Shown here: positions 4,196-44,674 of the stretch, piece by piece | How positions within the stretch are numbered: position 1 is the stretch's first letter | Layout of the letters: each line of letters begins with the position of its first letter | Assembly (NCBI GenBank): GCA_022822575.1 | Contig: JAJEBJ010000455.1 | Location: 1-44,674, forward strand | DNA from: Alphaproteobacteria bacterium | Lineage (GTDB): Bacteria > Pseudomonadota > Alphaproteobacteria > SP197 | DNA: 44,674 nucleotides | Reading direction: 5' to 3' | Translations under genes and position numbers: made by a program | The notes under the pieces: model-generated | What the model was told of the DNA's origin: nothing | The model's input: only the letters and a program-made list of their open reading frames with translations | Databases searched by the model: none

Positions 4196-4222
4196 GCCGG
4201 CCTCCCGTGGATTGCTGGCCTG

Positions 4223-5410: not shown

Positions 5411-6226
5411 CTAGGCTGTGGCGTAGCCCGACGCTGCATGGGGCGCCATGGCCCTTGCATGCGCGGCGATCGAGCGCGCCGTGAAACTGCCATCCGGCGG
5501 TGTATCACGGATGAAATGGCGCCAGGTGTCCCTGCCGCGCACCGGGATGGCAGACAGCGCCGGTCCGGCGGTCTGACGCACGTGGGCGGGCAGGTAGCGG
5601 ACCGCAACGGCGATGCGCGGCGACGCGGTACGGTTGATGCCGGACGCATGGGCAAGAAGACAGTGGTGGAGCGACATCTCCCCAGCGTTCAGGATGACCG
5701 GAACGGCGAGCGATTCATCCATATCGAGGACGATTTCCTGACCGCGGGTGAGGGCGCTTCGCTGGGACAGCGTTTCCCGGTGGCAGAGCTTGTCGTGTGT
5801 GTGGGTACCCGCCATGAAACGCATGCATCCGTTCTCGGGACGGGCATCGGTGAGGGCGATCCATGCGGTGCAGATCTCGAAGGGCTCGAGATTCCAGTAA
5901 TTGGCGTCCTGGTGCCAGTTGATGTGCTGCCGTTCCCCGGGCGGCTTGCAGAAGAGATCGGCCGCCTGAAGAAGGATGTCCGGCCCGATGACTGATTCGA
6001 CGCCGTCGAGCACGGCGTCATCTGTCGCGAGATCGAAGATCCAGTCGCAGAGCAGGTGCATCTTGATGCGCCAGGGGTGCTGCAGATCCGCCGGTGGTTG
6101 CTCCAGGAGCCTCTCGACGCGCGCGGCCGCTTCGCTGGCCCTTGCCGCGCCGATCGCATCCAAGGGAAAGACGTAGCCATCCCGCCTGTAGCGCAGCGCC
6201 GCTTCATTCGGGCGCTCGTCAGTCAT
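5411..6226 (-). CDS. phytanoyl-CoA dioxygenase (PhyH) family Fe(II)/2-oxoglutarate-dependent oxygenase
   Basis: WHQDANYW (the HxD iron motif), a later HH..LAHASG.N and an R near the C-terminus fit the PhyH/EctD-like superfamily. The start overlaps the upstream stop (ATGACTGA). Confidence 0.8.
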   Translation of the reverse strand: MTDERPNEAALRYRRDGYVFPLDAIGAARASEAAARVERLLEQPPADLQHPWRIKMHLLCDWIFDLATDDAVLDGVESVIGPDILLQAADLFCKPPGERQHINWHQDANYWNLEPFEICTAWIALTDARPENGCMRFMAGTHTHDKLCHRETLSQRSALTRGQEIVLDMDESLAVPVILNAGEMSLHHCLLAHASGINRTASPRIAVAVRYLPAHVRQTAGPALSAIPVRGRDTWRHFIRDTPPDGSFTARSIAAHARAMAPHAASGYATA

Positions 6227-7052
6227 GGTGCCGTTCCCACAGGATCGGCAGGAGGTCGCAGCGGTAGGGACCGCCTTCGATGAGTCCGTACTCCGCTTCC
6301 AGGAAATCCGTCATGTCGCGGGTCCAGGACCCCCGCCGACGATAGATGGCATCGCCCTCGGCGAAGCGCATGGTGAACCGCCTTGTGGTGCGTTGCGGTG
6401 GAGTGGCGTCTGGTGTGCCGTGCACCATGTGCGAATCGAAGACGAGGCAGTCTCCGGGCTGGAGCGCGTAGTCAACCCGGTCGCCGTGCTCGCTCAGACG
6501 GGAGAAATCGGGAGTCCTCTCGTAAATTCCGCGGGGATCGGCTTTCGGTCCGGTGCCCGCGAAACTCTCCGGCATGAAGAGCCTGTTCCATGTATGGGAC
6601 CCCTTGAGAAACGTGACGCCTTCGCCCCGGGCGACCGGCTCGAGAGCCATCCACAGCACGCACCATGTACCGTCAAGATCGAAATACGGTGCATCGTGAT
6701 GCCAGGGTGCCCGGTTGACGGCACCGGCCTTGCGTACGAGCCAGTTGTCGGTCACGAGCATCACGGAAGCAACGTCCATGAGTTCGCCGGTGATCCGGGC
6801 CGCAGGTGAATCGAAGATGAAATCACGCATCGCCGGCACCTGCTGCCAGATCCAGAAATCCGTGCAGTACGTGCCGGGTTTCGTATCCGCCGAATAGTCG
6901 ACAAACATCGGTCCGGGGCTTGCCATGCCCTGGTCGATGGCGTCGGAAGCAACGGCCAGCCAGTGAGGGTCGAAAGCCTCGCGAAGGCAGACAACCCCGT
7001 CCTCCTTGTAGGAGGCACGTTGCTCCGGCGTCGTCAGTAGCGAGTCAGGCAT
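6219..7052 (-). CDS. phytanoyl-CoA dioxygenase (PhyH) family Fe(II)/2-oxoglutarate-dependent oxygenase (second, divergent copy)
   Basis: PWHHDAPYF (HxD) and FDSHMVHG (distal His) are present. I place the start at the ATG at 7052 (MPDSLL...) because GAGGAG lies 5 nt upstream and overlaps the ehuA stop. The tracked ORF extends to 7106. Confidence 0.8.
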   Translation of the reverse strand: MPDSLLTTPEQRASYKEDGVVCLREAFDPHWLAVASDAIDQGMASPGPMFVDYSADTKPGTYCTDFWIWQQVPAMRDFIFDSPAARITGELMDVASVMLVTDNWLVRKAGAVNRAPWHHDAPYFDLDGTWCVLWMALEPVARGEGVTFLKGSHTWNRLFMPESFAGTGPKADPRGIYERTPDFSRLSEHGDRVDYALQPGDCLVFDSHMVHGTPDATPPQRTTRRFTMRFAEGDAIYRRRGSWTRDMTDFLEAEYGLIEGGPYRCDLLPILWERHHD

Positions 7053-7059
7053 GGGCTCC

Positions 7060-7872
7060 TCAATCCGCATCGAGCACGGCGCTGAGGAACATCCTTGTGC
7101 GCTCATTCTGCGGGTTGCCGATCAGCTGGTCCGGCGGGCCCTGCTCGGCAATCCTGCCCTCGTAGAAGAAGCAGACGCGATCCGAGATTTCGCGGGCAAA
7201 TCCCATCTGGTGCGTCACGATGATCATGGTCAGGTCATGTTCTCTGGCGAGCTTGCGAATGACGTTGAGAACCTCGCCGATCACCTCCGGGTCAAGGGCC
7301 GAGGTGACCTCATCGAAGAGCATGACCTTCGGCCGCATGGCAAGCGCCCGGGCGATGGCGACGCGTTGCTGCTGGCCGCCGGAGAGGCGCGACGGATGCT
7401 GGCCCGCCTTGTCGGCAATGCCCACCATGGTCAGGAGTTCCATGGAGCGCTCCCGCGCCTCATCCTTGCCGAGCCCCAGCGACTGCACGGGGGCCTCCAT
7501 GCAGTTCTCGAGCACGGTCATGTGAGGAAAGAGATTGAAGTGCTGGAACACCATGCCGATGTCCGATCGCATCCTCCTGAGGTGCGCGCTGCCGGCTCCG
7601 ACCAGGATTCCATCCCGTTCCATGTGGGTGAGCGGCTGACCATAGAGATAGATGACGCCGTCATCGATGGGTTCGAGAGTCATCAGGACGCGCAGGACCG
7701 TGGTCTTGCCCGAGCCGGACGGCCCGATGATCGAGACGATTTCATTGGCTGCGATGTCGAGATCAAGTGAATTGAGCACCGTGAGATCGCCGTAACGCTT
7801 GGACACCTTGGAGAACCGCACCGCAGGTGGATCATTTTCCTTCAGCCGGAGGGGATGTGCATTTCGGTCCAT
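7060..7872 (-). CDS. ehuA: polar amino-acid/ectoine-type ABC transporter ATP-binding protein (EhuA-like)
   Basis: It has Walker A GPSGSGKTT, the signature LSGGQQQRVAIARAL and Walker B VMLFDEVTSALD. The start is uncertain: ATG at 7872 or TTG at 7911. Confidence 0.85.
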   Translation of the reverse strand: MDRNAHPLRLKENDPPAVRFSKVSKRYGDLTVLNSLDLDIAANEIVSIIGPSGSGKTTVLRVLMTLEPIDDGVIYLYGQPLTHMERDGILVGAGSAHLRRMRSDIGMVFQHFNLFPHMTVLENCMEAPVQSLGLGKDEARERSMELLTMVGIADKAGQHPSRLSGGQQQRVAIARALAMRPKVMLFDEVTSALDPEVIGEVLNVIRKLAREHDLTMIIVTHQMGFAREISDRVCFFYEGRIAEQGPPDQLIGNPQNERTRMFLSAVLDAD

Positions 7873-7897
7873 GACTTTGTCTTGTCCCGGCAGCCCG

Positions 7898-8566
7898 TCA
7901 ATCGACACCAAGCGTGCGCCGGGTCCATGTCTCGAACCTTCTTAGACCGAATGCCGCCGGCAGGGAAATGGCGAGGAAGATGATGCCGACCAGGGTATAG
8001 GGCTCGAGAAAGCGGTAGGTTTCGGAGCCGACAGCATTGGCGGTGTGAAGGAGCTCGGCGACCCCGATCACAGAGAGCATCGGCGTGTCCTTGAAGATAC
8101 CGACAAGATAGTTCCCCATGCCCGGGATGGCGGGTGGCAGCGCCTGGGGAATGATGATCCTGAAGTAGCTCCTCCGTGTTGACAGATTGAGGGCCTTGCA
8201 GGCTTCCCATTGTCCCTTCGGAACGCTGTCGAGACCCGCCCGGTAGACTTCGGAAAGGTACGAGGCGTAGTGCAGGCCGATGGCGATCATGCCGGAGGTC
8301 CAGGGAGAGAGCGTCACGCCCACCTGCGGCCCGACGTAGAAGATGAAGAAGATCTGCAGGACCAGCGGCGTGGAGCGAATGAACTCGACGCATTCGCGTA
8401 TGGCGATCGTGAGAAGGGTGATGGACGTGCGCTGTCCCAGTGCGAAGGCCAGCCCGACCACAAGGGCGATGGCGTAGCCGATCCCGGCGGCGAGCAAGGT
8501 GTTGGTGGTGGCCAGGAGGAGACGCGGCAGAATCTCGAAGGTGAAGTCCCATTTCCAGTCGAACAT
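7898..8566 (-). CDS. ehuD: ABC transporter permease (EhuD-like, His/Glu/Gln/Arg/opine family)
   Basis: 222 aa and multi-pass hydrophobic, with an EAA-type loop (EACKALNLSTRRSYFRIIIPQAL). Confidence 0.8.
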   Translation of the reverse strand: MFDWKWDFTFEILPRLLLATTNTLLAAGIGYAIALVVGLAFALGQRTSITLLTIAIRECVEFIRSTPLVLQIFFIFYVGPQVGVTLSPWTSGMIAIGLHYASYLSEVYRAGLDSVPKGQWEACKALNLSTRRSYFRIIIPQALPPAIPGMGNYLVGIFKDTPMLSVIGVAELLHTANAVGSETYRFLEPYTLVGIIFLAISLPAAFGLRRFETWTRRTLGVD

Positions 8567-8569
8567 GGC

Positions 8570-9247
8570 CTATGCTCCGGGGATCCGGCCCATCTTGCGC
8601 GCCATGAATCTCTCGAGGGCCAGCATCGACGGCGATATCAGCAGTCGTGCCAGGAGGTAGTAGATGATGAGCGCTGTGCCGAAGGCCTCGGCGGAAAGGA
8701 AAGTCGAGCCGTTGATCTGGCGCGCCTCGAACATGAGGTCGGTGACGGAGATGAGCGCCACCAGCGCCGTTCCCTTGAGAAGCTCGATGAAGAGGTTGCC
8801 CCAGGGCGGCAGCATGGCGAGCAGCGCCTGCGGCAGGATGATCCTCGTCATGCGCTTGTAGGGGGAGAGATTGAGCGCGATGGCGACTTCGTACTGGCCG
8901 CGCGGAACCGAAATGATGGCGCCGCGGACGACTTCGGCTCCATAGGCGCCGAGATTCATGCCGACTGCGATGAAGCCCGCCGTGAATTTCTCAAGGGTGA
9001 TGCCGAACAACGGCAGCACGAAGAAGATCCAGAACAGCTGGATAAGGAGGGACGTTCCCCGGAAAATCTCGATGTAGGTGGTGGCAACGGAGCGGACGAG
9101 GACCAGCTTCGAGAGCTTCATCAGTCCCATCAGGAGGGCGATGGCAACCGCCAGCAAGGCGGCGAGCACGGTCTGCTGGACCGTGACGATGGTTCCGTCG
9201 ATGAAGCGCGGGCCGTACTCCACCAGAAAATCGAGGTAGTGTTCCAT
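8570..9247 (-). CDS. ehuC: ABC transporter permease (EhuC-like)
   Basis: 225 aa, paralogous to the downstream permease, with an EAA loop (EVAIALNLSPYKRMTRIILPQAL). Confidence 0.8.
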   Translation of the reverse strand: MEHYLDFLVEYGPRFIDGTIVTVQQTVLAALLAVAIALLMGLMKLSKLVLVRSVATTYIEIFRGTSLLIQLFWIFFVLPLFGITLEKFTAGFIAVGMNLGAYGAEVVRGAIISVPRGQYEVAIALNLSPYKRMTRIILPQALLAMLPPWGNLFIELLKGTALVALISVTDLMFEARQINGSTFLSAEAFGTALIIYYLLARLLISPSMLALERFMARKMGRIPGA

Positions 9248-9270
9248 CAGGAGTGCCCGCCGGTTTCAGA

Positions 9271-9314
9271 ATCCAGGGCCTCCCGACCGGGACAATGATC
9301 GGGAGGCCCTGGAT
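9271..9314 (-). promoter_or_regulatory. intercistronic stem-loop: perfect 16-bp stem with a 12-nt loop, between the binding-protein gene and the first permease gene
   Basis: ATCCAGGGCCTCCCGA (9271-9286) is the exact reverse complement of TCGGGAGGCCCTGGAT (9299-9314). There is no U-run after it on the minus-strand transcript, so it is not a classical intrinsic terminator. Confidence 0.6.
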
Positions 9315-9336
9315 CAAACACGCTGCAATCTGACGG

Positions 9337-10191
9337 TCAGCGGTTGGCGCAGGCATACTCCGTTTTGCCATCGCCTGGCAGTTGGGATGCCGTGTAGTCG
9401 TACTCCGCCACGGCGGCCATCATCGCGTCCGAACCGATCCAGGACGCCAGCGCATCATTGAACGCTGCGACGAAATCGGTGTCCTCGTGACGGAACGCTA
9501 TTCCGACCCAGTTGAAGGTCCATTCCGGGAGAAGGGATGGATCGGTGATGTCGATTTCGCCTTCGCTCTCCGCGGCAAGGGAGCGTGCCGTGAAGAACGT
9601 CACACCGCCGGCGTCGGCGCGGCCGGCGCGGACTGCGGCAAGAATCTCCGTGGGGCCGGGAACCTGCATGATGTTGGAGTCCTCGATGCCCATTCTCTTG
9701 GCGACTTCAACGATGTTGTAGCCTGCTCCGGTGACGATGATCGCTCCCATGTCGCGGATATCGTCGTAGGTCTGGATCCCCTTCGGGTTGCCTGCCGGGA
9801 CGATGAAGGCATCGCCGAACACGCCGATCGGTTCGGAAAACGTCACGTTCTCGCAGCGGCTGGCGAGGATGTACATTCCGCCGGTGATGATATCGAAACG
9901 ATTGGCGTTGAGCCCGGGAATCAGGCCGCCCCAGTCGGTCACCACCGGTTCGATATTGGTGATTCCCATCTCGGTCAGGATGCCGGTGGCGATTGCATTG
10001 ACGAAACCGAGCGGCTCGTTGTCCTCGCCGGGATAGGCCCACGGGACCTCGTTGGCAAAGCCGATGCGCACGGTTTCGCCGGCCATTGCCTTTTCGAGGA
10101 GTGTATGCCCATCCGCCTGGACCTGTGTTGTCCAGGGGGTCAGGACAAGGCTCGCGACGATCGCCGCCCACGATAACTTCATGAACTTCAT
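9337..10191 (-). CDS. ehuB: periplasmic substrate-binding protein of the ABC importer (EhuB-like, ectoine/hydroxyectoine-type)
   Basis: The start is set at MKFMKLSWAAIVASLVLTPWTTQVQA (a signal peptide). The mature part has type-II SBP blocks (LIPGLNANRFDIITGGMY, GNPKGI). The 81-aa upstream extension in the ORF track overlaps the M20 gene and is not protein-like. Confidence 0.8.
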   Translation of the reverse strand: MKFMKLSWAAIVASLVLTPWTTQVQADGHTLLEKAMAGETVRIGFANEVPWAYPGEDNEPLGFVNAIATGILTEMGITNIEPVVTDWGGLIPGLNANRFDIITGGMYILASRCENVTFSEPIGVFGDAFIVPAGNPKGIQTYDDIRDMGAIIVTGAGYNIVEVAKRMGIEDSNIMQVPGPTEILAAVRAGRADAGGVTFFTARSLAAESEGEIDITDPSLLPEWTFNWVGIAFRHEDTDFVAAFNDALASWIGSDAMMAAVAEYDYTASQLPGDGKTEYACANR

Positions 10192-10252
10192 GATGCATGA
10201 TCTCCGGATTGTCTCTTGAAATGTGCTGTACTCTGGCACGGGGTTGCTCCTG

Positions 10253-11422
10253 TCACAAGGAAGACGCCAGCTGGCGTCCCATCTTGCCGAGAAACTCGAG
10301 TCCTTCGGCCAATTCACCGAGTTCGATGTACTCGTCCGGCTTGTGAGCGCGCTCGATGCTGCCGGGTCCGAAGACGATGGTCGAGTACGCCGCTTCGCTG
10401 AAGTACCCGGCGTCCGTGCCGAAGGAGACGACATCCGCGCTGTTGAGCCCCGTCAGGCCCCGGACGAAGTCGATCGCGTCGCCGGCGTGGCGGTCGTCGA
10501 GACCCGGAACACGGGCCTCGATGGTCGTCACGATATCGGCCTCGGGGCAGCGCTCGCGCATTTCCGGAACGAGTTGCCGTTCACAGTAGCGGCGTATGTC
10601 ATCGACGAAATCCATCCCGTCGTCTCCCGGAAGCATGCGGATCTCCCAGTCGAATTCACACCATCCGGACGTGATGTTGCGCGCCGTTCCACCGTTGATC
10701 CTGCCGACATTGAGCGTTGGAAACGGCGGATCGTAGGGCGATTCCGCGACAGGATCGGCGGCGCACCTTTGGGCGTGTTCCTCGATGCGGCTGATGAGGC
10801 GCATGGCGTAGGCGATCGCGTTGACGCCGTTGAAGGGGTTGCACGAATGGGCCTCGAGGCCCGTGACGACGGTATGGAGTTCGATGGCCCCCTTGTGGCC
10901 CGAGACAATCTTCATGGTTGTCGGTTCACCGACGATGACGATGCCGGGGCGGAAGTCCCTCTTCGCCATGTCCCGCAACAGCACGGGCATGCCGAACCCG
11001 CCGATCTCCTCGTCGTACGTGAAGGCAATGTGGATGGGCCGCGAGAGTTCCATCTCCTGCCACGCCGGAACCGATGCCAGGACGCAGGCAAGGAAACCCT
11101 TCATGTCGACCGTACCGCGGCCATGGAGTCGATCACCGATCCGCGTCACTCGGAAGGGATCGGTCTTCCAGTGCTGACCGTCGACAGGCACCACGTCCAT
11201 GTGACCGCACAGCACGACACCTCCGTCGCTCGATGGTCCTATGGTGGCGAAGACGTTGGCCCGCTCCCCAGATTCATCGAAACTCAGCGACGAGGGAATC
11301 CCCCGGACCTCCAGAACGTCCCTGACGATGCCGACGATGTCGTGGTTGGGTTTTCCCGACACGCTCGGGCACGCGACCAGACGGGAAAGAATGTCGACGG
11401 CCGCATCAAGGTTCGCGTTCAC
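10253..11422 (-). CDS. M20-family deacylase (ArgE / acetylornithine deacetylase-like)
   Basis: LSRLVACPSVSG, VVLCGHMDVVP and TYDEEIGG are the M20 metal-binding pattern. I prefer the GTG at 11422 (preceded by GGGCGAGG) over the ATG at 11536, but this start choice is uncertain. Confidence 0.8.
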   Translation of the reverse strand: MNANLDAAVDILSRLVACPSVSGKPNHDIVGIVRDVLEVRGIPSSLSFDESGERANVFATIGPSSDGGVVLCGHMDVVPVDGQHWKTDPFRVTRIGDRLHGRGTVDMKGFLACVLASVPAWQEMELSRPIHIAFTYDEEIGGFGMPVLLRDMAKRDFRPGIVIVGEPTTMKIVSGHKGAIELHTVVTGLEAHSCNPFNGVNAIAYAMRLISRIEEHAQRCAADPVAESPYDPPFPTLNVGRINGGTARNITSGWCEFDWEIRMLPGDDGMDFVDDIRRYCERQLVPEMRERCPEADIVTTIEARVPGLDDRHAGDAIDFVRGLTGLNSADVVSFGTDAGYFSEAAYSTIVFGPGSIERAHKPDEYIELGELAEGLEFLGKMGRQLASSL

Positions 11423-11556
11423 CTGGCCTCGCCCTCCCCGCGCCCGAAAGGCTCGGAGGGTACGCAGTGGGTGAGACCGCTGTAAAGCCCGTTGCCGCGG
11501 GAGGGTGCTTGCAGATAGCGTTGCAACATCGGGCACGGTGTTCCGGAGACGGGTCG

Positions 11557-27443: not shown

Positions 27444-28967
27444 TCATGACGCGCATCCACGCGGTTCCTCGCCAAGACAGTCGCGGAATGCGCCGTCGGC
27501 GATGGCGGCGGCGACGGCGGCAACCTCGCCGGTCATGCTGCGGTCGTCGTCGAGGGGCGGAACGATGAGACGCAGTGCGTCGCGCAGACATCCCGCGACA
27601 CGGGCGTGGCGCGGCGGATTGCGCAGATCGAAGGCCTGGGAGGCAACGATGAGTTCGGCGGCGGCAATGCCGGTAAGGTGGCTGACCGCATCCCGTGCCT
27701 GGCGGACTGCCACCCAGGTCATTGGTGCGTGGTCCTCGACATGGTAGGTCGAGCTGTCCAGCAGGCTGGCCGGTGCGCCGAGCAGGTGGATCTCCTTCGA
27801 CAGGGTCTCCGACGTGAGCGACAGGAGGCCGAGACCGGCCCTGGTGGTACCGTGGCGCGTCAGCATGTCGGGCAGTCCGGTGAACTGGTTCTGCATCAGG
27901 CGGCCGACGCGCTGTGCCGCCATCGTCGCAGTCTGGGCCATGGCAAGAGTGAGGGCATCGAAGGCGACCGCCATGGCCGGCGTGTGGAAATTGCCGGTGG
28001 ACAGGATGTCGCCGTCCGCCGCCAACACCAGGGGGTTGTCTCCGGCGCCGTTGATCTCGACAGTGACATTGGGCGTCGCGAAATCGATCGCTGCCCTCAG
28101 ACTGCCGTGAACATGGCTGACGCAGCGCAGGCTGATCGGATCCTGGACACGGCGCGGTTCCGCAGGATCGAAGAGCGCCGTTCCCTCGAGCTTGTGGCGC
28201 AGACTCAGGGCCGCCCGGGCCTGGCCGGGTGCGCCACGGGCCATCACCACGCGGGGGTCGATAGGCCCGGGATTGGCGCGGAAGGCCTCGAAACCGAGAA
28301 CGACAATGCCGTCCATCAGCTCCAGGAGATGATCCAGATCGGCAATCACCAGGGCCGCCTGGCCAACGGAAACGGCATTCGAGGAGCAGAGAGCCAGACC
28401 CTCCTTCTCGCGCAGCTCGACCACGTCGATGCCTGCGCGCGCCATGGCTTCCGCGCCGTCAAGGAGTGTTCCCCGGAACCAGGCGCGCCCTTCGCCGATG
28501 ACGGGAAGCGCCATGTTGGCGCACAGCGCCAGGTCCGAGGCGCCGATGGAGCCGATTCCGGGAACAAAAGGGTGAACGCCCTTTTCAAGCATCGCGCCCA
28601 GTGTTTCAGCGATGAGCGGGCGTACCCCGGCCCCTCCCTGTGCCATGCCGGCGGCCCGTGAGAACATGGCGGCCCGCACGGCCTCCCCGGGGAGGGGCTC
28701 GCCGGCGCCGCAGGCCCGGGCGAGAACCACGATCCGGCTGTAGTCCCCGCGGTCCGCTTGGTCCACTTCGTTCACCACGCGCCCGCCAAGGCCTCGGGTC
28801 AGGCCGTAGACAGGTCGGTCGGAAGCGCTGAACCGCTCGACCACGGCACGGCTCTCTTCCATGCGGGATCGCGCCTCGCCGGCGATTGCGACCGTTGCGC
28901 CGCCACGGGCCACAGCCACCACGTCATTGATTCCAAGCGGAGTGTCTCCCAGCAGGATCGTCGTCAT
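27444..28967 (-). CDS. histidine/aromatic amino-acid ammonia-lyase family protein with a disrupted MIO triad
   Basis: It has full-length HAL/PAL architecture (507 aa; VYGLTRGLG, SSNAVS, QDPISLRC). Where the canonical enzymes read GASGDLAPL, it reads GSIGASDLALCANM. Confidence 0.8.
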   Translation of the reverse strand: MTTILLGDTPLGINDVVAVARGGATVAIAGEARSRMEESRAVVERFSASDRPVYGLTRGLGGRVVNEVDQADRGDYSRIVVLARACGAGEPLPGEAVRAAMFSRAAGMAQGGAGVRPLIAETLGAMLEKGVHPFVPGIGSIGASDLALCANMALPVIGEGRAWFRGTLLDGAEAMARAGIDVVELREKEGLALCSSNAVSVGQAALVIADLDHLLELMDGIVVLGFEAFRANPGPIDPRVVMARGAPGQARAALSLRHKLEGTALFDPAEPRRVQDPISLRCVSHVHGSLRAAIDFATPNVTVEINGAGDNPLVLAADGDILSTGNFHTPAMAVAFDALTLAMAQTATMAAQRVGRLMQNQFTGLPDMLTRHGTTRAGLGLLSLTSETLSKEIHLLGAPASLLDSSTYHVEDHAPMTWVAVRQARDAVSHLTGIAAAELIVASQAFDLRNPPRHARVAGCLRDALRLIVPPLDDDRSMTGEVAAVAAAIADGAFRDCLGEEPRGCAS

Positions 28968-29791
28968 CGTCCGTTCTCCCGATCGTCATGGGGCATGTGC
29001 CCGGCAGCAAGGCTTCCAGCGATATCGTCGATTGCCCGAGGAAGATCGACGACGGTGTCGATGACATGATGGGCGCCGGCCTCGTGGAGAGGTGCTGCGG
29101 CCCTGGTCCTCAGCCGACCGATTTCTGACGCGTCGAGGCGTGCCAGGTCGTTCTCGTCAAGCCCGACACCGTTCCCCGACAGCGTGACACCGACGGCCCA
29201 GCTGCCGGCGGCGACAGCCTCCGCGATGCCGGGTGCGGTGTCGTCCACCTTGACGACGGCACTCGCCGGCCAGACGGCAAGATCGATAAAGCAGCGGTAC
29301 ATCATGAGTGGCGTGGGTCTGCCGGCGGCAAGGTCGTCCGAGCACACCGTCACCTCCGGCGCAAATCCTTGCGTTTCGGCCAGGCGGGCAAGGGGCGTCA
29401 GGACGGAGCGGGGATACCCGGTGGTCGAGCCGATCCTGACACCGCGCCGGCGCAGGTCGCCAACAACGTCGGCAGTGCCCGGAATCAGGGCGGAACGACG
29501 GAGAGCTGTGTCCTTGATGCGTTTTTCCAGGATCCCGTGAAGACGGTCGATGTCGCCAGCCATGATGTCCTGGCCATGAACGTGGCGCCATGCAGCGGCG
29601 ATGCGGGGCAGACGTGCCAGAACCTCGATGTGGTGGCGTTTGCCGAGGCCCATGGGCCCCCTCGCCTCGTCATCACGAATCATGACGCCACGATCGGCGA
29701 AGATCTCGATGAAGGCCTCGACCGGTGCCCTGGAACCGAAATCGACCACCGTGCCGGACCAGTCGAAGATGACTGCCTTGATCCCGCCCAT
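28964..29791 (-). CDS. phnX: phosphonoacetaldehyde hydrolase (phosphonatase), HAD superfamily
   Basis: AVIFDWSGTVVDFGSRAPVEAFIEIF (DxxGT nucleophile motif), PMGLGKRHH (the Schiff-base Lys region), IGSTTGY and VKVDDTAPGI match PhnX throughout as I recall it. Confidence 0.85.
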   Translation of the reverse strand: MGGIKAVIFDWSGTVVDFGSRAPVEAFIEIFADRGVMIRDDEARGPMGLGKRHHIEVLARLPRIAAAWRHVHGQDIMAGDIDRLHGILEKRIKDTALRRSALIPGTADVVGDLRRRGVRIGSTTGYPRSVLTPLARLAETQGFAPEVTVCSDDLAAGRPTPLMMYRCFIDLAVWPASAVVKVDDTAPGIAEAVAAGSWAVGVTLSGNGVGLDENDLARLDASEIGRLRTRAAAPLHEAGAHHVIDTVVDLPRAIDDIAGSLAAGHMPHDDRENGR

Positions 29792-29924
29792 GTCCTCCGG
29801 CCTTCGTGCCCCGGGTCAACGTAGCCGGGACCCTGGTTCTCTCCAAGCCCCGGCATGCCGATGGCGCCTTGCACGGGACGCTCGGGCCGCCTTAGGCTGG
29901 CGGGGGTCGGGGAGAACAGGTTCC

Positions 29925-30641
29925 ATGTCGCGCGCACGCTTCGCCAGTGACGGAAAGGGTGGTCTGACACGTCACGTGCCGATCAGGATTCCACATCACG
30001 CGGCCCTGCTGGTGGTGGATGTGCAGGTCTACACAGTGACGCCGGGTGACGGTGAATTCGGCGACATCGACCCTTGCTCCATTCCGGACCATCTCGCCTA
30101 CTACTTCGCCCGCCTTGAAGGGGTGACCCTGCCGGCGATCGCCCGCCTTCAGGACGCGTCGAGACGGGTCGGCATGGAGGTGATGTACACGGTCGTCGAG
30201 GCCCTGACCGGCGACATGCGGGACCTTGGGCTCGATTATCGCATCTCGGGCATCGGCGTTCCGAGAGGTTCGCCATGGGCCGACATTCCCGAAGCCATAG
30301 CCCGTCACGACGACGAGATCGTCATCTCGAAGACATCATCGAATGTCTTCGTGTCGACCAACATCGACTACGTGCTGCGCGCACTCGAGATCGAACAGAT
30401 CGTGATCTGCGGCCTGCTGACCGACCAGTGTGTCGAATCGGCGGTGCGCGATGCCTGCGATCTCGGCTATCTGGTGACGGTGCCGGAAGACGCGTGCGCC
30501 ACCATGAGCAGGGAGCGGCACGAGCAGTCGCTCGACATGTATTCGGGGTATTGCCGGATCGTGACGAGCGATGATGTCGTCACCGAGCTCGCCGGATTTC
30601 CCGCAACCGGTGAAGCCGGTCTGCGGGCAGTGACAGCCTGA
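29925..30641 (+). CDS. isochorismatase-family cysteine hydrolase
   Basis: The Asp-Lys-Cys triad context is present: ALLVVDVQ, VISKTSSNVF, ICGLLTDQCVESAVRDA. I chose the ATG at 29925 (GGGGAG upstream). The tracked ORF start at 29601 lies antisense inside phnX. Confidence 0.8.
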   Translation: MSRARFASDGKGGLTRHVPIRIPHHAALLVVDVQVYTVTPGDGEFGDIDPCSIPDHLAYYFARLEGVTLPAIARLQDASRRVGMEVMYTVVEALTGDMRDLGLDYRISGIGVPRGSPWADIPEAIARHDDEIVISKTSSNVFVSTNIDYVLRALEIEQIVICGLLTDQCVESAVRDACDLGYLVTVPEDACATMSRERHEQSLDMYSGYCRIVTSDDVVTELAGFPATGEAGLRAVTA

Positions 30642-30651
30642 GGAGACGCCC

Positions 30652-31254
30652 ATGGAACGGATCATTGTCCCGCCATCAGAAGGTCGTGCGGTGCGTGTCA
30701 CCGCCGGCCAGTCCATCTCCGTTGCGACGCCGAAGGGAGGCCAGGCGGCCGATTTCTTCGCCTACAACAGCACCAATGTCGACGAATGGCTGTCGCCACC
30801 GCACACGTGGGTCACCACGTTCTCGCTCAAGCCGCGCCCGGGCGACGTCTTCCTGTCGCGATTCAGACGTCCGATGCTGACGATGACAGCGGACACCGCA
30901 GACGGCGTCCACGACATGCTGCTCGCGGCCTGCGACCAGTTCCGTTACGAGTTCTTCGGCTACCGGGGCGTGCACGCCAGCTGTTCCGGGAACCTTGAGA
31001 TCGCCATGCGTCGCGAGGGCTACGAGATTTCGGTCATTCCCCAGCCGATCAATTTCTTCACCAACGTGCCGGTGGATGACGAAGGACGCCTGACGGCTCC
31101 CGCCAACCGGGTCAAGCCGGGCGCCAGCGTGACCATGGAGGCATTGATGGACCTCATCTGCGTGGTCTCCTCGTGTCCTTTCGACATGCACGCCGAAGGC
31201 TGGGAGATCAACGCCGGCAACGAACCGACGGAACTCGAGATCGAGGTGGAGTGA
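30652..31254 (+). CDS. DUF1989 / urea-carboxylase-associated family protein
   Basis: IVPPSEGRAVRVTAGQSI...GGQAADFFAYN...DMLLAACD...CSGNL... resembles the DUF1989 family by recall. It lies 10 nt after the preceding gene. Confidence 0.65.
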   Translation: MERIIVPPSEGRAVRVTAGQSISVATPKGGQAADFFAYNSTNVDEWLSPPHTWVTTFSLKPRPGDVFLSRFRRPMLTMTADTADGVHDMLLAACDQFRYEFFGYRGVHASCSGNLEIAMRREGYEISVIPQPINFFTNVPVDDEGRLTAPANRVKPGASVTMEALMDLICVVSSCPFDMHAEGWEINAGNEPTELEIEVE

Positions 31255-38884: not shown

Positions 38885-41800
38885 TCAGGTTGTGTAGACC
38901 AACTCGGGTAGCACGACGTTCCATCTTTCCTGACGGAGTCGCGGCCGGAAGCTCTCTGCTGAGTCGGACCGATAACGCACGGTGATTGCATGGACGCTGC
39001 CTTCAACCAAGGTGGCGCCCTTCGGTGGTTCGTACTTCCGGGCGAGGCAGCCAACAGCAATGCCATGCCGGTCGATGATCAGCACCCGGTTGCCGTCCTG
39101 TCTCAGGCTGATCGGGTCGCCGGCAGCGAGGCTGTCGAGGGCCCGGAGCGCCGGATGACCGGCGGCCATCTGTCCCGCAAAGTCCAGGACGACCTCCGAC
39201 AGGTTGAGTGTCCTGTAGATCTTCCTGCAGTCCGCCACGCCGTCGCCGTTCACTTGCGGGGTGCGATGGGTCACTGCCGGTCCGCCCATGTTGCCGATGA
39301 AGGGATGACGGCTTCCCATCGAAACGACCGCCAGGCTGCGCCGGGCGCGGGTCATCGCGACGTAGTAGAGCCGCCGTTCGGCGTCGATGTCACCACCGTT
39401 CGAATTCCGCCCCCAGCCACCGTCCAGAATGACCACATCGTCGAATTCGAGACCTTTTGCCCGATGCGCCGACAGGAGCAGCAGGCCGGTCTGGCGTTTG
39501 CGGGCATCGCGGCCCCATTCGGCAAGCCACTCGATGACATCCCTGCAGTCGGTCTCGCGGTCACCGAGTTCATGGAGCAGGTCATCGACGCTCTCTCGCA
39601 GGACGGACCACCATGGGCCTGGGGGTTGACGCTCCACCCATCTCGCCATGTCGGCAGCGCGGATGACAGAACTCGAGTGTCGCCTGAGCCAGTCTACAAG
39701 GCTTTGGGTTTCGCGCAGACGCCACACGCTGGGCGGATCGTCGGATCCGGCCTGGACGGAGATGTCATGAGCTTCGCAGTAGCTCCGCACCGGTCCCAAC
39801 AGCCGCCAGTGGCGGGCGATGACCGCCGCTTTCTCCCAGTGCCAGTTGGGGATCTGCTGGGACAGGCGCTCCAGTTCATTCACTGCCAGGACGGCCTGGA
39901 CGGCTTCATCGTCGGGCCCTCGCAGGATCTGCACCCGACCACGCCCGACAGGATCGAGCCGTTCAAGATCGCCCCCTGGACGGTCCTTCTGTCGGCTCTG
40001 GTTCACGACAATGTCGTGACCGGCCTTCATGCGGTCACTGGCCGGTGCGATGAGCATGTTTGCGGCATCAACGATGTTGGCCGTCGACCGGTAGTTCTCG
40101 ACCAGGTGAACCGGGCGCGCCGAATAGTCATTCTCGAAGCGCCGGATGAATGTGACAGACGCGCCCTTGAAGGCGTAGATGTTCTGGTCGTCGTCGCCGA
40201 CGGCAAAGAGACTGAGCCGGCTGTCTTCGTCCTCCACCGATCGCCCGGCAATGGCAGCGATCAGTTCATACTCGTCCGGTCCGATGTCCTGATACTCATC
40301 AACCAGGATCCAGCGATAACCCTCGATTATCGAATCACGCTGTGCCTCGGCCTCGTCACGGGAAAGGCCGTCGCCCCGCAAAAGCGAAACCGCCTGCCGG
40401 AGTATCCTGTCAAAGTCTCCTTGCGAAATGTCGCCGGACTGACCGGCGAAGCTCGCCCCGACCAGGCGCATCGCCAGACCGTGACAGGTGGACACCGTCA
40501 CGCCGCGGGCATCGTCGCCGAGAAGATCGACGAGCCGGCGCCGTATCTCGGTTGCTGCGTGGCGGTTGTAGACGAGGGCGAGGATGCCTCGCGGATCCTG
40601 CCGGCGGACCCGGATCAGGTATGCGATTCGGTGCACCAGGACCCGTGTCTTTCCCGATCCGGGGCCGGCAAGCACGAGAACACTTGTCTGCTCACGATCA
40701 TCGGCGACGATCCGGGCCTGCCGGGCGTTGGCGAGGGACTCGACGATTGCGGCCCAGGATTCCGGAGTGGTCTGGCGCCGGAGCGCCGCAGCGCTACGGG
40801 GCAGCCACTTCTCGACGAACCCCTGCCGGTCGTGAGTAAAATAGTCGTCCATCAGACGCAGTGCATCAGGCATGGATTCCAGCCCACGCTCGGCGTAGGT
40901 CGCAATGATGTGGGTCTGGAGAGTTTGCTCGTCATAGTGGATATGAAGTGGCTGGTAGTCGGTCTCGGTGAACTTCCGGTTGCCCGGGTCGAGACGGATG
41001 GTGATCGCGGGCCGGAAGATCGTGAGTCCCCTGCCGAGAGTGACCACGGCCTGCTCGTGGAGCCAGAGCAGGGCGTGGTCGAGCAGGCTCGAAGGATCGC
41101 TGATCTCCTGTGAGAGCTCGAGGTCGTTTCCAAGCGCGGAGATCAGCGCGCCCAGCGTTGTTGGGACCTGCACGTCCTTCCCGCGGGCCCTGGCGGGTGC
41201 GGTATCGGCAAGCGACGCAAGCAACACGTCGGCGGCCCTGCGTCGGAGCCGGGACGTCAGTGTGAGCTTGTCCCAGGGGCGCTGCAGGCGGAGCGAGAGG
41301 TGCTGGCGATCGATCTTGCGCACCTGAAAGCTGCCGACCCCCTCCGCATCTTCCCGGCCATCCCGGGCGATCCCCCGGATGAGCTTCTCGACGATATCGG
41401 GCCGAACCGTCGCGTGACCGGCGTCGCGCAGCAGCTGAGAAGCGAGTCGGAGGCTGAGGGAGGACACCTCGCCGACTTTCAGGTCGGGCGCGAGTCCTTG
41501 CATCCGGTCAAGCAGTTCGCCTTCCAGTCCGGACACGTCAACGAGGCGCTTGCGGGATGAATCCTCGACGCCGAGATGAATGAAGACGGTGATTGACGTG
41601 TCGTTCGATGCGATCCCCAGTTCCTCGAGAAAACTGAGTGCCTTGCGCAGGCGCGCTGGCGTGAAGCCGGACTCCCCGCAGAGTTCGTCGGTCGAGATGC
41701 CGCGGTCGGGCGGGGAATCGAACAGGCTACGCACCAGCCGGAGAAGCTTCGCCCGGTACCCCGTACTCGCACTGGAGGCTTCGATCCGTTCGCGGGCCTC

Positions 41801-44008
41801 GTCCATCGTCCGGATCTTCAACGAGGATGGGAACACGCGGACGAAGTTCTCGTCGCGCTTCAGGAGAGCTGCCTCTTCCAGCCACGAGACGGCAATCTTC
41901 ACCCGAGTATCGTCGGAATCCCTGTCCCTTCCGAAGTCCCCATCGATGTCTTCCTTGACGATCTCGCCGGGTGTGGCGATGACTTCGCCATCCCGCCTGG
42001 ATCGCCGTGCGAGACGCCGCAGGGACTTCAGGATCGTCGCGATCTCCTTCTTGTCGAGACGCCCGCGCGCCGAGAGACGAAACTGCTTCTCGATGTCGTC
42101 GTTGCAGTAGAGCAGGACGCAGCGGGCGGGCTCGCCATCGCGACCCGCGCGCCCGGCCTCCTGGACATAACTCTCCAGCGAGCCCGGGATGTCAGCATGG
42201 ATGACAAGGCGGATGTCGGGCTTGTCGATGCCCATGCCGAATGCGTTGGTTGCCACGATAATGCGCAGTTCGCCGTCGGTGAACTGCTGCTGGGTCTCCA
42301 GCTTGGCTTCGGGCTTGAGCCCGGCATGGTAATGGGCGGCGGCGTACCCCTTCTCCTTCAGGAATTCTGCGATCCTCTCGGTCGCGCTGCGGGTTGCGCA
42401 ATAGACGATCGCCCCCGACGTGCCATCACCGGGCAGTGCGTGTCTGAGAACTGAAACGATGTCGCCAAGCTTTCCGGTATTGTCCGTTTGAACAACGTCA
42501 AATGAGAGATTGTCACGCTGCGCGCCGCCATCGATCCTCTGGAGATCGATGTCGAGCTCCTCCCGAAAGTGTCCGCATATGTCGTCGATGACGCCGGGCT
42601 TGGCTGTTGCCGTCAGGCAGATCAGTGGAGCGGGTGCGCTGTCGGCGGAGTATTCGCGAACGAACCGCGCGATGTACCGGTAGTCCGGGCGAAAGTCGTG
42701 ACCCCACTTGGAGACGCAATGCGCTTCGTCGACGATCCAGTAACCGACCTCCCGCTGTTCCAGGATCGACCGTACCGAGGGGTTTCTCAGTTGCTCCGGC
42801 GAAACGAGAAGCATGGACGCATCGCCGAGGCGAACCCGGTCGAGCGCATCATGGCGTTCGGGCAGCGACAGGAGACCGTTGACCGTAACGCAGGACGATA
42901 TGCCCTGCCGTTTCAGGCTGGCGACCTGATCGGCCATGAGCGCAACGAGCGGCGAGATGACGACGGTGAGTGCGCCGGTCCGATGATAGGCCGCGAGCGC
43001 CGGAAGCTGATAGCACAGGGATTTGCCGGTCCCGGTCGGAAGGATTCCGAGAACCGGGGTCTTTGCGAGCCCGGCTGCGACGATGGCCTCCTGCAGGGAG
43101 CGGCCGTCACCGCCGGCCGGTTTCGGCCTGAACCCTTCGAAGCCGAACCATTTGCCAAGAAGGCTGACCGGGTCGGCCCAGGTCCGGCACCACGCGCAGT
43201 CAGGGTCGGTGCAGGATGTGTCACGGAGCCTTCGGACGAGTGCGCCGGCTTCGGGAAACTGATGGCGCACCCAAGGCGGCATGACGGAGTCGTCTCCGGC
43301 CACCGAAATCCAGGAAAGGGCGTAGGCAAGAGACCACCCGGTCCGCTCGGCCTCCAGGATCGCCTGTTTCGTCTGGCGGATGCAGGCCCGGTCGGAGAGG
43401 ACATGTCGAATGGCCTTGTTGGCCTCAGGAGCGTCGGGTCTGGGCGCATCTCTCACCGACCGGAAGACTGCGTCGAAGCCCTGCGGGTTCTCACTCGACG
43501 TGATGAGCCAGTGGAGCGCGGCCAGGAGGTCGGGATCGTGTCCTGCAAGCTTGCGCAGTTCGTCAAGCTGGCTTTGCAGGACGGTGAGGACGAGCCTGGA
43601 GTCCTGCTCGGGGTCGCTGGCGTTCCCGGCTTGCAACCGTCCATCCTTGTAGTGCTTGACCAGGCGGTGATAGGGATTGCGGGGAAAGGCGAGCGGATTG
43701 AGCCAGAGCGTGTCAATCGGAGGCTTCGCCAGGATCTGCAGTCCGGCATTCGCCTCCCTCAGATACGGCAGATCGTGCAGGATGACGTTGTGACCCAGCG
43801 CCAAGTCCGCGCCGGAAGAATAGGCATCCAGCGCGAGCAGGGCCTCCGCAAGGTTGCCACCACGATAAGTGCAGGTGACGCTCTCATCCGACCGGACGGC
43901 TGCGAAGCTCAGAATCCGGCCGGTGTTCGGATCGACTTCGAGGTCGACAGAAACGCATCTCGAGACAAGGTCCGCCTTTTCCACTGTGTTCCCGATTCCC
44001 TCCCCCAT
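38885..44008 (-). CDS. 1,707-aa multidomain protein: N-terminal DnaQ-like (DEDD) exonuclease module, RecQ-family SF2 helicase, long helical linker, UvrD/Rep-family SF1 helicase, and an unassigned C-terminal domain
   Basis: This is a single uninterrupted ORF.
- Exonuclease module: VSVDLEVD and GHNVILHD.
- RecQ core: LPTGTGKS (nt 43019-43039), VDEAHCVSKWGHDFRPDY, ATNAFGMGIDKPD and QEAGRAGRDG.
- UvrD core: AGPGSGKT (nt 40646-40666), ILVDEYQD, VGDDDQNIY, ENYRS, SAHRAKGLEFD and YYVAMTRAR. Confidence 0.85.
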   Translation of the reverse strand: MGEGIGNTVEKADLVSRCVSVDLEVDPNTGRILSFAAVRSDESVTCTYRGGNLAEALLALDAYSSGADLALGHNVILHDLPYLREANAGLQILAKPPIDTLWLNPLAFPRNPYHRLVKHYKDGRLQAGNASDPEQDSRLVLTVLQSQLDELRKLAGHDPDLLAALHWLITSSENPQGFDAVFRSVRDAPRPDAPEANKAIRHVLSDRACIRQTKQAILEAERTGWSLAYALSWISVAGDDSVMPPWVRHQFPEAGALVRRLRDTSCTDPDCAWCRTWADPVSLLGKWFGFEGFRPKPAGGDGRSLQEAIVAAGLAKTPVLGILPTGTGKSLCYQLPALAAYHRTGALTVVISPLVALMADQVASLKRQGISSCVTVNGLLSLPERHDALDRVRLGDASMLLVSPEQLRNPSVRSILEQREVGYWIVDEAHCVSKWGHDFRPDYRYIARFVREYSADSAPAPLICLTATAKPGVIDDICGHFREELDIDLQRIDGGAQRDNLSFDVVQTDNTGKLGDIVSVLRHALPGDGTSGAIVYCATRSATERIAEFLKEKGYAAAHYHAGLKPEAKLETQQQFTDGELRIIVATNAFGMGIDKPDIRLVIHADIPGSLESYVQEAGRAGRDGEPARCVLLYCNDDIEKQFRLSARGRLDKKEIATILKSLRRLARRSRRDGEVIATPGEIVKEDIDGDFGRDRDSDDTRVKIAVSWLEEAALLKRDENFVRVFPSSLKIRTMDEARERIEASSASTGYRAKLLRLVRSLFDSPPDRGISTDELCGESGFTPARLRKALSFLEELGIASNDTSITVFIHLGVEDSSRKRLVDVSGLEGELLDRMQGLAPDLKVGEVSSLSLRLASQLLRDAGHATVRPDIVEKLIRGIARDGREDAEGVGSFQVRKIDRQHLSLRLQRPWDKLTLTSRLRRRAADVLLASLADTAPARARGKDVQVPTTLGALISALGNDLELSQEISDPSSLLDHALLWLHEQAVVTLGRGLTIFRPAITIRLDPGNRKFTETDYQPLHIHYDEQTLQTHIIATYAERGLESMPDALRLMDDYFTHDRQGFVEKWLPRSAAALRRQTTPESWAAIVESLANARQARIVADDREQTSVLVLAGPGSGKTRVLVHRIAYLIRVRRQDPRGILALVYNRHAATEIRRRLVDLLGDDARGVTVSTCHGLAMRLVGASFAGQSGDISQGDFDRILRQAVSLLRGDGLSRDEAEAQRDSIIEGYRWILVDEYQDIGPDEYELIAAIAGRSVEDEDSRLSLFAVGDDDQNIYAFKGASVTFIRRFENDYSARPVHLVENYRSTANIVDAANMLIAPASDRMKAGHDIVVNQSRQKDRPGGDLERLDPVGRGRVQILRGPDDEAVQAVLAVNELERLSQQIPNWHWEKAAVIARHWRLLGPVRSYCEAHDISVQAGSDDPPSVWRLRETQSLVDWLRRHSSSVIRAADMARWVERQPPGPWWSVLRESVDDLLHELGDRETDCRDVIEWLAEWGRDARKRQTGLLLLSAHRAKGLEFDDVVILDGGWGRNSNGGDIDAERRLYYVAMTRARRSLAVVSMGSRHPFIGNMGGPAVTHRTPQVNGDGVADCRKIYRTLNLSEVVLDFAGQMAAGHPALRALDSLAAGDPISLRQDGNRVLIIDRHGIAVGCLARKYEPPKGATLVEGSVHAITVRYRSDSAESFRPRLRQERWNVVLPELVYTT

Positions 44009-44238: not shown

Positions 44239-44674
44239 ATGACGTCGTTCGAAGGCCAGCCCAGGACAGAAGACGGTCTCCGGAGGGATCTTGCGACGAT
44301 AGGCATCGCTCAGGGGATGACCCTGCTGGTCCACTCCTCGCTGAGTTCGATCGGCTGGGTGGTCGGCGGGGCTCCAACCGTGGTGCGTGCACTCCTGTCC
44401 GCACTCGGGGAAGGCGGTACGTTGGTCATGCCGGCGGCGACGCCTCTTTGCGCGGATCCCGCGACATGGACGAGTCCCCGACTGCCGGAGGCCTGGCTGG
44501 ATGACGTCCGGGAGCATCTTCCGGTCTTCGACGCCCAGACGACTCCGACAACCATGGGCGCCATATGCGAGAGCTTTCGCACCTGGCCTGACACCCTGCG
44601 GAGCACTCACCCTGTCGAGTCCGTCTGTGCCCGCGGCATTGAGGCGCCAGGCATTGTCAGCGAACACCCCCTGG
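44239..44674 (+). CDS. aminoglycoside N(3)-acetyltransferase (AAC(3)/Antibiotic_NAT) family protein, N-terminal 145 codons; continues past the window edge
   Basis: This ORF is not in the supplied track because no stop falls in the window. My translation from the ATG at 44239 (GAGG 8 nt upstream) gives MTSFEGQPRTEDGLRRDLATIGIAQGMTLLVHSSLSSIGWVVGGAPTVVRALLSALGEGGTLVMPAAT..., which is the AAC(3) family N-terminal signature. Confidence 0.7.
   Translation, partial: MTSFEGQPRTEDGLRRDLATIGIAQGMTLLVHSSLSSIGWVVGGAPTVVRALLSALGEGGTLVMPAATPLCADPATWTSPRLPEAWLDDVREHLPVFDAQTTPTTMGAICESFRTWPDTLRSTHPVESVCARGIEAPGIVSEHPL

Follow-up and report, generated by a model that had tools for sequence, protein, structure and literature searches.

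A histidine ammonia-lyase-like protein without the MIO-forming glycine in an alphaproteobacterium, a candidate trimethylamine lyase for a histidine betaine

Introduction

Contig JAJEBJ010000455.1 of the alphaproteobacterial assembly GCA_022822575.1 (lineage SP197), analysed here over positions 1 to 44,674 and called the window below, encodes a protein, P0001, with the fold of histidine ammonia-lyase (HAL) and phenylalanine ammonia-lyase (PAL). Canonical ammonia-lyases and aminomutases of this fold carry the electrophile 4-methylideneimidazole-5-one (MIO), whose cyclisation uses the amide nitrogen of a loop Gly, and it is this Gly that P0001 lacks. What chemistry, if any, can such a protein perform? 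The original prediction, made from the DNA sequence, was that an otherwise well-conserved, full-length family member had probably lost the ability to form a normal MIO and might have either a different chemistry or a non-catalytic role. Here we report that P0001 is a new member of the MIO-less trimethylammonia-lyase branch, a kind of MIO-free enzyme that is itself already known. By analogy with the characterised members, we propose with moderate confidence that P0001 needs no MIO to release trimethylamine from a thiolate-free histidine betaine of the S-methyl-ergothioneine or hercynine type.

The lyase gene and its shortened loop

The features of the gene are listed below. Residues of P0001 carry their own numbers; homologous positions are given in HAL numbering or, for position 384, in that of ergothionase.

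27444..28967, minus strand: gene of P0001, PF00221 (HAL/PAL fold), 507 amino acids (open reading frame call and Pfam)
28530..28544, minus strand: codons GGC GCC TCG GAC CTG of G142-A143-S144-D145-L146, the MIO-precursor loop of HAL with the Gly absent (phmmer alignment)
28122..28145, minus strand: QDPISLRC, residues 275-282 (alignment with HAL)
28794..28808, minus strand: YGLTR, residues 54-58, with Tyr54 equivalent to HAL Tyr53 and Arg58 in place of HAL Thr57
28716..28718, minus strand: codon of Arg84, where HAL and ergothionase have the imidazole-binding His83 (alignment)
27816..27818, minus strand: codon of Leu384, at the position of ergothionase Lys384 (alignment)

P0001 matches PF00221 over its full length (E 4.8e-129), as expected from the original prediction. 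When aligned by phmmer with HAL of Pseudomonas putida (1gkm/1gkj), it shows a single one-residue gap opposite Gly144 with the frame intact (gsigas.dlalcanm in P0001, gsvgasgdlaplahm in HAL), which bears out the claim that exactly one Gly codon is absent from GASGD. The loop of P0001 reads GSIGAS-DLALCANM, with G-A-S-D-L within PGIGSIGASDLALCANMAL and its codons inside 28527-28556. Ile278 of QDPISLRC pairs with Tyr280 of 1gkm (vqdpyslrc), again as claimed, and lies 133 residues beyond D145, where about 135 had been estimated; 1gkj is the Y280F mutant of HAL. The HAL motifs cited in the original prediction match the sequences of the solved structures and also the canonical HutH of the same genome, which is encoded on contig C222 and reads GSVGASGDLAPLAHLS (GASGDLAPL) and QDPYSLRC.

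P0001 resembles P. putida HutH (1gkm/1b8f; E 7e-62 to 9e-62) in fold, in length and in Tyr53, Gln277, Arg283, Asn313, Phe329 and Glu414. Gln275 and Arg281 of QDPISLRC occupy the conserved carboxylate-binder positions, and Asn311 and Glu411 are kept as well. The description of P0001 as otherwise well conserved was nevertheless only partly right: besides the missing Gly144, which leaves no MIO, and Tyr280 to Ile, the phmmer alignment shows replacement of His83 by Arg84, Asn195 by Ser195 and Thr57 by Arg58. As regards the imidazole binders of HAL, the N-pi binder is present (Glu411, equivalent to Glu414) and the N-tau binder His83 is replaced by Arg84. P0001 also scores below both NCBIfam cut-offs for HutH, with 358.7 against 539.15 bits and 381.9 against 524 bits (TIGR01225 and NF006871, respectively). 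An AlphaFold2 model of P0001 has a predicted local distance difference test score (pLDDT) of 92.3 and a predicted template modelling score (pTM) of 0.93. Proteins of its clade bear the public names 'histidine ammonia-lyase' or 'aromatic amino acid lyase', and a look-up in the ESM Atlas returned generic family names only.

Conservation of the shortened loop

We examined whether a sequencing or assembly error could account for the missing Gly, a possibility that the original prediction had allowed for. Contigs from four of four runs, belonging to four studies, contain no inserted or deleted letter over 28200-28900; two of these runs are possibly the source of the window itself. One run holds a second strain variant, which has 18 substitutions and no gap over 28470-28677. 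The short loop also recurs in relatives. In a set of 121 sequences consisting of P0001 and its 120 best database relatives, down to 49% identity, the Gly position is empty in 120, and the remaining sequence is a fragment that is gapped there. The indel-free runs and these short-loop relatives together rule out an artefact.

Further changes in the active site recur in this set. The pair preceding the Asp is AS in 84 sequences, TS in 18, AA in 15, TA in 2 and AL in 1, and the Ser, the residue that becomes the methylidene in MIO, is missing from 18 of the 121. Position 280 is occupied by Ile (110), Leu (9) or Val (2) and never by Tyr; position 195 by Ser (116) or Ala (5) and never by Asn; and position 83 by Arg in 120 sequences. 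Position 384 varies (Leu 70, His 18, Ala 9, Met 9, Ile 8, Phe 3, Gln 2, Val 1, gap 1) and is never Lys. Tyr53 is retained in 119 sequences and Glu414 in 120, the exceptions being gaps. The ratio of nonsynonymous to synonymous substitution rates (dN/dS) between P0001 and 11 orthologues is 0.09-0.26; P0001 is under purifying selection. The loss of the Gly, of the Ser in some members and of Tyr280 in all 121 supports the prediction that P0001 forms no normal MIO and has a different chemistry. The non-catalytic option, in contrast, appears unlikely given the dN/dS values and the retention of Tyr53, Gln277, Arg283, Asn313 and Glu414.

The clade was also examined at the level of genomic loci. Among 66 related loci, 59 carry a lyase open reading frame of at least 440 amino acids; seven (L019, L029, L037, L056, L057, L070 and L073), in which no open reading frame passed the caller and clustering, were left out of the maps, table and tree. 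The alignment and tree comprise 64 rows: the 59 loci, P0001 and four paralogues from its own genome. All 60 clade rows have Tyr53, Thr56, Arg57, Arg83, Gln277, Arg283, Asn313 and Phe329, no Gly in the loop and, at 280, an aliphatic side chain. In 57 of them Ser occupies position 195, with Ala in the other three, and Glu414 is kept in 59, with Thr in L039. The tree separates a 48-row branch (SH-aLRT support 98), which holds P0001 and a lyase of Pandoraea anhela (L046) and never has Lys at 384, from a sister branch of 12 rows (SH-aLRT 82; 39-48% identity to P0001) that has Lys at this position. The clade is sparse: 7 of 401 genomes of the class, an even sample that includes G000, match the clade profile at 470 bits or more, which is too few for a co-occurrence test.

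Comparison with ergothionase and other betaine lyases

As described in two preprints (bioRxiv 10.1101/2025.08.13.670108 and 10.64898/2026.04.22.720169), MIO-less betaine lyases of PF00221 release trimethylamine, which is a leaving group good enough to make MIO unnecessary. In these enzymes, a Tyr accepts the beta-proton, Gln, Arg and Asn hold the carboxylate, and His and Glu hold the imidazole; Lys384 of ergothionase binds the thiolate of its substrate (bioRxiv 10.64898/2026.04.22.720169).

Ergothionase of Treponema denticola (6s7j/6s7q; phmmer E 2.5e-57) is like P0001 in having the PF00221 fold, no MIO triad and a short loop. A more distant clade member, L069, aligns with 6s7j without a gap through the loop (the two loops read SIGSIGASDLCVLAH and RSSIGEGDITTLSH), and in one alignment P0001 and L069 show no indel relative to each other there, with one extra Gly in HutH; ergothionase therefore has the same one-residue-short loop. 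It further resembles P0001 in its Arg at position 57 (YGLNRG), its Ser at 195 and an aliphatic residue at 280, here Leu (LQDPLSFRC), as well as in the catalytic Tyr, the Gln, Arg and Asn carboxylate binders and Glu414. Since Arg58 of P0001 has this counterpart in ergothionase, it is no marker of a new side chain. The two proteins, which are about 26% identical in a structural alignment, differ in the loop (Glu-Gly-Asp in ergothionase, Ala-Ser-Asp in P0001), at His83 (Arg in P0001) and at the thiolate-binding Lys384 (Leu in P0001), and because of this last replacement ergothioneine itself is an unlikely substrate. As judged from the alignments, the short, Gly-less loop of P0001 and its lack of Tyr280 are a signature shared with an already described MIO-free branch, that of ergothionase and the histidine-betaine trimethylammonia-lyases.

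The hercynine lyase Swoo_3913 of Shewanella woodyi and SO_3299 and SO_3057 of S. oneidensis were compared with P0001 through their descriptions in the preprints. They are likewise MIO-less PF00221 proteins that release trimethylamine, and they share the catalytic Tyr, the carboxylate binders and the Glu. Like P0001, betaine lyases with thiol-free substrates are described as having no Lys at the 384 position (Gln434 in SO_3299). The Shewanella enzymes are, however, periplasmic and coupled to flavocytochrome reductases according to the same preprints, whereas the N-terminus of P0001 is of the usual HAL kind and no reductase of this type is encoded beside it, and Swoo_3913 keeps the imidazole-binding His117 where P0001 has Arg.

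By analogy with these enzymes, the substrate of P0001 would be an alpha-N,N,N-trimethyl amino acid whose trimethylammonium group leaves without the help of an MIO electrophile. Tyr54 would take the beta-proton while Gln275, Arg281 and Asn311 hold the carboxylate, and the departure of trimethylamine would leave an alpha,beta-unsaturated acid, which for a histidine betaine would be a (substituted) urocanate. With Glu411 kept and Leu standing where ergothionase has Lys384, the likeliest candidate is a histidine betaine that carries no free thiolate, for example S-methyl-ergothioneine or hercynine. The change from His83 to Arg84 marks a reshaped side-chain pocket, and the identity of the substrate is therefore the weakest step; going by the residues that line it, this pocket differs from those of the characterised enzymes. 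For the clade as a whole, the chemistry almost certainly differs from that of histidine ammonia-lyase and probably releases trimethylamine.

Gene neighbourhoods of the related lyases

The clearest pathway context within the 48-row branch is that of the P. anhela lyase (L046). A gene for S-methyl thiourocanate hydratase (956.7 bits on NF058531, cut-off 880) overlaps the lyase gene by 13 bases. Approximately 0.6 kb further downstream comes one for S-methyl thiohydantoin desulfurase (494 bits on NF058532, cut-off 450). NCBIfam has no model for an MIO-less lyase of this type. By its context, the L046 lyase would be the trimethylamine-releasing first step of S-methyl-ergothioneine breakdown, and L046:1630-11809 is apparently a complete S-methyl-ergothioneine utilisation cluster. 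The gene order across this region is peptide-type ABC transporter, porin, MIO-less lyase, hydratase, desulfurase and a 3-mercaptopyruvate sulfurtransferase-like gene. The L046 lyase is 48-49% identical to P0001 and has the same residue at 16 of the 18 active-site positions compared, Arg83 and Leu384 among them; it differs in its loop, which is Ala-Ala-Asp, in the Val at 280 and in its hydratase and desulfurase neighbours, neither of which P0001 has.

Other parts of the clade have different neighbours. Lyases of the Lys384 branch adjoin hutF (695.6 bits) and hutI (472.5 bits), or an MttB-family methyltransferase gene. In two genomes, G014 and G015, the contig with a lyase of this branch also carries a urocanase-family gene at a distance of about 10-12 kb and, about 27 kb away, a PF00221 gene (621-623 bits) that is taken by its score as a canonical HutH. 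Thiourocanate hydratase (NF058530) was above its cut-off in none of five genomes searched from this sister clade, a count that includes the unpublished G012. Lyases of the Lichenihabitans type adjoin genes for D-hydantoinase, carbon-nitrogen hydrolase, RidA, an FAD oxidase and a peptide-type binding protein, and in L033 an ErtE-like carbamoylase gene lies 28 bases upstream of the lyase. The Pandoraea, hut, Lichenihabitans and L033 contexts fit a role in the catabolism of imidazole betaines.

A cupin of the type of dimethylsulfoniopropionate (DMSP) lyase (PF16867) accompanies clade lyases in Lichenihabitans. It is fused to the N-terminal side of the lyase P0108 (720 amino acids; residues 44-186, E 6.9e-30), and in L039 it is a separate gene (L039:1526-2128) located 27 bases upstream of the lyase. 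No lyase fusion longer than 888 amino acids was found among 8000 candidates, which is weak evidence. At most 13 of the 59 loci have any one gene cluster in common beside the lyase. A same-strand gene order recurs in one subclade (L017-L025, L049 and L053), where a response regulator gene and the lyase are followed by genes for a DIOX_N/2-oxoglutarate-Fe(II) oxygenase, a 373-residue protein that matches no family, a HAD-IIA hydrolase (TIGR01459) and a molybdopterin oxidoreductase of the cytoplasmic type. The oxygenase was considered as a partner and set aside, as the genome that encodes P0001 has no close copy of it (best identity 37%).

Genes beside P0001 and the phnX pairing

The immediate neighbours of the lyase gene on its upstream side are listed below.

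28964..29791, minus strand: phnX, phosphonoacetaldehyde hydrolase, upstream of the lyase and overlapping its start by 4 bases (TIGR01422, 304.3 bits, cut-off 220)
29601..30641, plus strand: isochorismatase-family (amido)hydrolase gene, divergent from phnX and the lyase
30652..31254, plus strand: DUF1989 protein gene, following the isochorismatase-family gene

The overlap with phnX, an operon neighbour co-transcribed with the lyase, raises the possibility that the two proteins act together, and the related loci argue against it. A full-length phnX is found upstream in only 5 of the 66 loci (L008, L011, L012, L013 and L017). The gene is internally deleted in L014, L015 and L016, where its two ends are left; L009 retains the last 20 codons and L021 the first 59, and L010 and L030 have no remnant. 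The lyase is intact in all of L009, L010, L014-L016, L021 and L030 despite the loss of phnX, and its dN/dS is 0.13 and 0.14 for L014 and L016, respectively. The persistence of intact lyases beside lost phnX genes rules out PhnX as an obligate partner; we treat the pairing as lineage-specific, and PhnX is probably not functionally required by the lyase. The best match to PhnW in the same genome reaches 139.2 bits against a cut-off of 400.8.

An ion-transport protein gene lies downstream of the lyase, and the neighbours also include a PotD-like ABC transporter with a gene for an S58 peptidase after it. The DUF1989 protein resembles the N-terminal part of trimethylamine N-oxide (TMAO) demethylase and urea-amidolyase-associated proteins, and its pairing with the isochorismatase-family gene is kept in the closest relatives.

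The host genome

The genome assembly that contains the window is 97% complete with 7.9% contamination. It carries five PF00221 genes, one a canonical HutH and four without the MIO triad. Besides HutH on contig C222, the paralogues lie on contigs C269, C51 and C396 (the four contigs being loci L001, L003, L005 and L007 for C222, C269, C51 and C396, respectively). The C269 protein reads GSIGSSDL and QDALSFRV and has Lys at the ergothionase 384 position, whereas the corresponding loops read GQGGAGEIL on C51 and GATGPGEVM on C396. A TMAO demethylase (1153 bits, cut-off 1100) and 13 MttB-family matches are also present. The host thus looks like a methylated-amine specialist, which is a plausible owner of several betaine lyases. 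Runs containing the stretch bear the label of a sponge, coral or marine metagenome, or else an organism name in coded form.

Three further observations concern this gene complement. One of the MttB-family matches has an in-frame TGA, and about 20 weaker matches (79.9-199 bits, under the cut-off) cover the C-terminal part of the TMAO demethylase model. In addition, a second, divergent urocanase-family gene on contig C290 (L074:1420-3219, minus strand) adjoins a thiolase gene. It scores nearly equally as hutU (588 bits), thiourocanate hydratase (565 bits) and S-methyl thiourocanate hydratase (585 bits), and a 95% identical copy occurs in a related complete genome (G001:C1:537531-539132). No Ert-type neighbours of either copy were found by tblastn.

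Weighing the alternatives

Several results weigh against P0001 being a lyase for a thiolate-free histidine betaine. General similarity does not single out ergothionase: by phmmer, HAL is slightly ahead of it (213 against 198 bits), and in fold comparisons of the model, tyrosine aminomutase 3kdz (Z 45.2), 7tqr (Z 44.6), ergothionase 6s7j (Z 44.0, rmsd 2.5, 495 residues aligned) and HAL 1gkj (Z 42.2) belong to a tie at Z 42-45 that takes in all family structures (HAL, tyrosine aminomutase, PAL and ergothionase), so the fold is confirmed but functions are not separable in this way. Residue 384 is variable inside the clade of P0001, and members may therefore differ in substrate; the change of His83 to Arg may mean a side chain other than imidazole. 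Further results of this kind come from the genomic context. The window has no urocanase-, Hut- or Ert-type neighbour; the best matches in the own genome to the two downstream enzymes seen in P. anhela fall short of their cut-offs (NF058531, 585.6 against 880 bits; NF058532, 120.2 against 450 bits); NF058531 exceeds its cut-off in only 1 of 10 clade genomes searched; a urocanase homologue lies within 7 kb of the lyase in only 1 of 66 loci; and the neighbourhoods differ widely between subclades. Together, these contexts argue against simply carrying the P. anhela pathway over to P0001. Finally, a literature search, with subscription papers outside its scope, found no characterised member of the 48-row clade and no S-methyl-ergothioneine lyase.

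Some of these results would be explained if the same fold and MIO-free elimination served a non-histidine onium compound, such as another amino-acid betaine or a sulfonium, with Arg84 and Arg58 binding a non-imidazole side chain. The Arg at the His83 position in 120 of 121 sequences fits this proposal, as do the lack of hut or Ert genes beside P0001 and most relatives, the DMSP-lyase-type cupin fused to P0108 or placed 27 bases upstream of the L039 lyase, and the 13 MttB-family matches, which suggest that the host handles many quaternary-amine substrates. We consider it rather unlikely, however, as 120 of 121 sequences retain Glu414, which binds the imidazole N-pi, Arg58 is found in ergothionase too, and L046, the only clade member with a pathway context from curated models, points to imidazole. 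Far less probable still is an undescribed route in which the lyase and PhnX convert a (trimethyl)aminophosphonate to phosphonoacetaldehyde, or a precursor of it, and so replace PhnW in a sponge-associated bacterium. The 4-base overlap of phnX with the lyase start and the lack of a PhnW above the cut-off in the own genome speak for such a route, and a phosphonate group might be bound by the additional conserved Arg residues; but phnX is full-length in only 5 of 66 loci, intact lyases persist where it is degraded or absent, Arg58 and Arg84 also occur in clades with hut neighbours, and, on reasoning alone, no HAL-type elimination leading to phosphonoacetaldehyde could be drawn from a known natural phosphonate.

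The two remaining explanations dispense with an MIO-free elimination altogether. Descent of P0001 from an ammonia-lyase with a switch to a purely structural or regulatory role would agree with its loss of the MIO triad, Tyr280, Asn195 and His83 and with the absence of a conserved pathway neighbourhood. Yet Tyr53 and the Gln, Arg and Asn binders are present in all aligned rows and Glu414 in 59 of 60, active ergothionase shows the same losses except that of His83, and the gene is under purifying selection, which together make this explanation very improbable. It is hardly credible that P0001 still works as an ammonia-lyase or aminomutase, with Ala-Ser-Asp giving rise to an MIO-like electrophile. 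P0001 and many relatives do have Ala-Ser (84 of 121), with Thr-Ser in 18 more, but 18 of the 121 lack the Ser (AA, TA or AL) and retain everything else, and Tyr280 and Asn195 are missing from all 121. We know of no MIO enzyme with a residue other than Gly at the third position.

Implications

A short loop of Ala or Thr, Ser or Ala, and Asp, together with Arg at 83, an aliphatic side chain at 280 and a residue other than Lys at 384, would serve as a signature by which genomic and metagenomic surveys could separate genes of this clade from those of true histidases. Trimethylamine is a metabolite of relevance to climate and to hosts, and the degraders of ergothioneine, hercynine and their S-methyl derivatives are still poorly mapped. 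With its four MIO-less paralogues, its TMAO demethylase and its 13 MttB-family matches, and with its occurrence in runs labelled as sponge and coral metagenomes, the host is a promising place to search for new betaine substrates.

Other features of the window

Three regions away from the lyase are recorded here. Positions 3032-11536 (minus strand) hold a catabolic-looking cluster with two creatinase/prolidase-type M24 genes, two PhyH-family dioxygenase genes, an M20 peptidase gene and genes for the ATPase and two permeases of an ABC transporter. Positions 38885-44008 (minus strand) encode a 1707-residue protein in which both a DEAD/Helicase_C module and a helicase module of the UvrD type are present. 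The start of an aminoglycoside 3-N-acetyltransferase family gene (PF02522) occupies 44239-44673 (plus strand), where it is cut by the window end.

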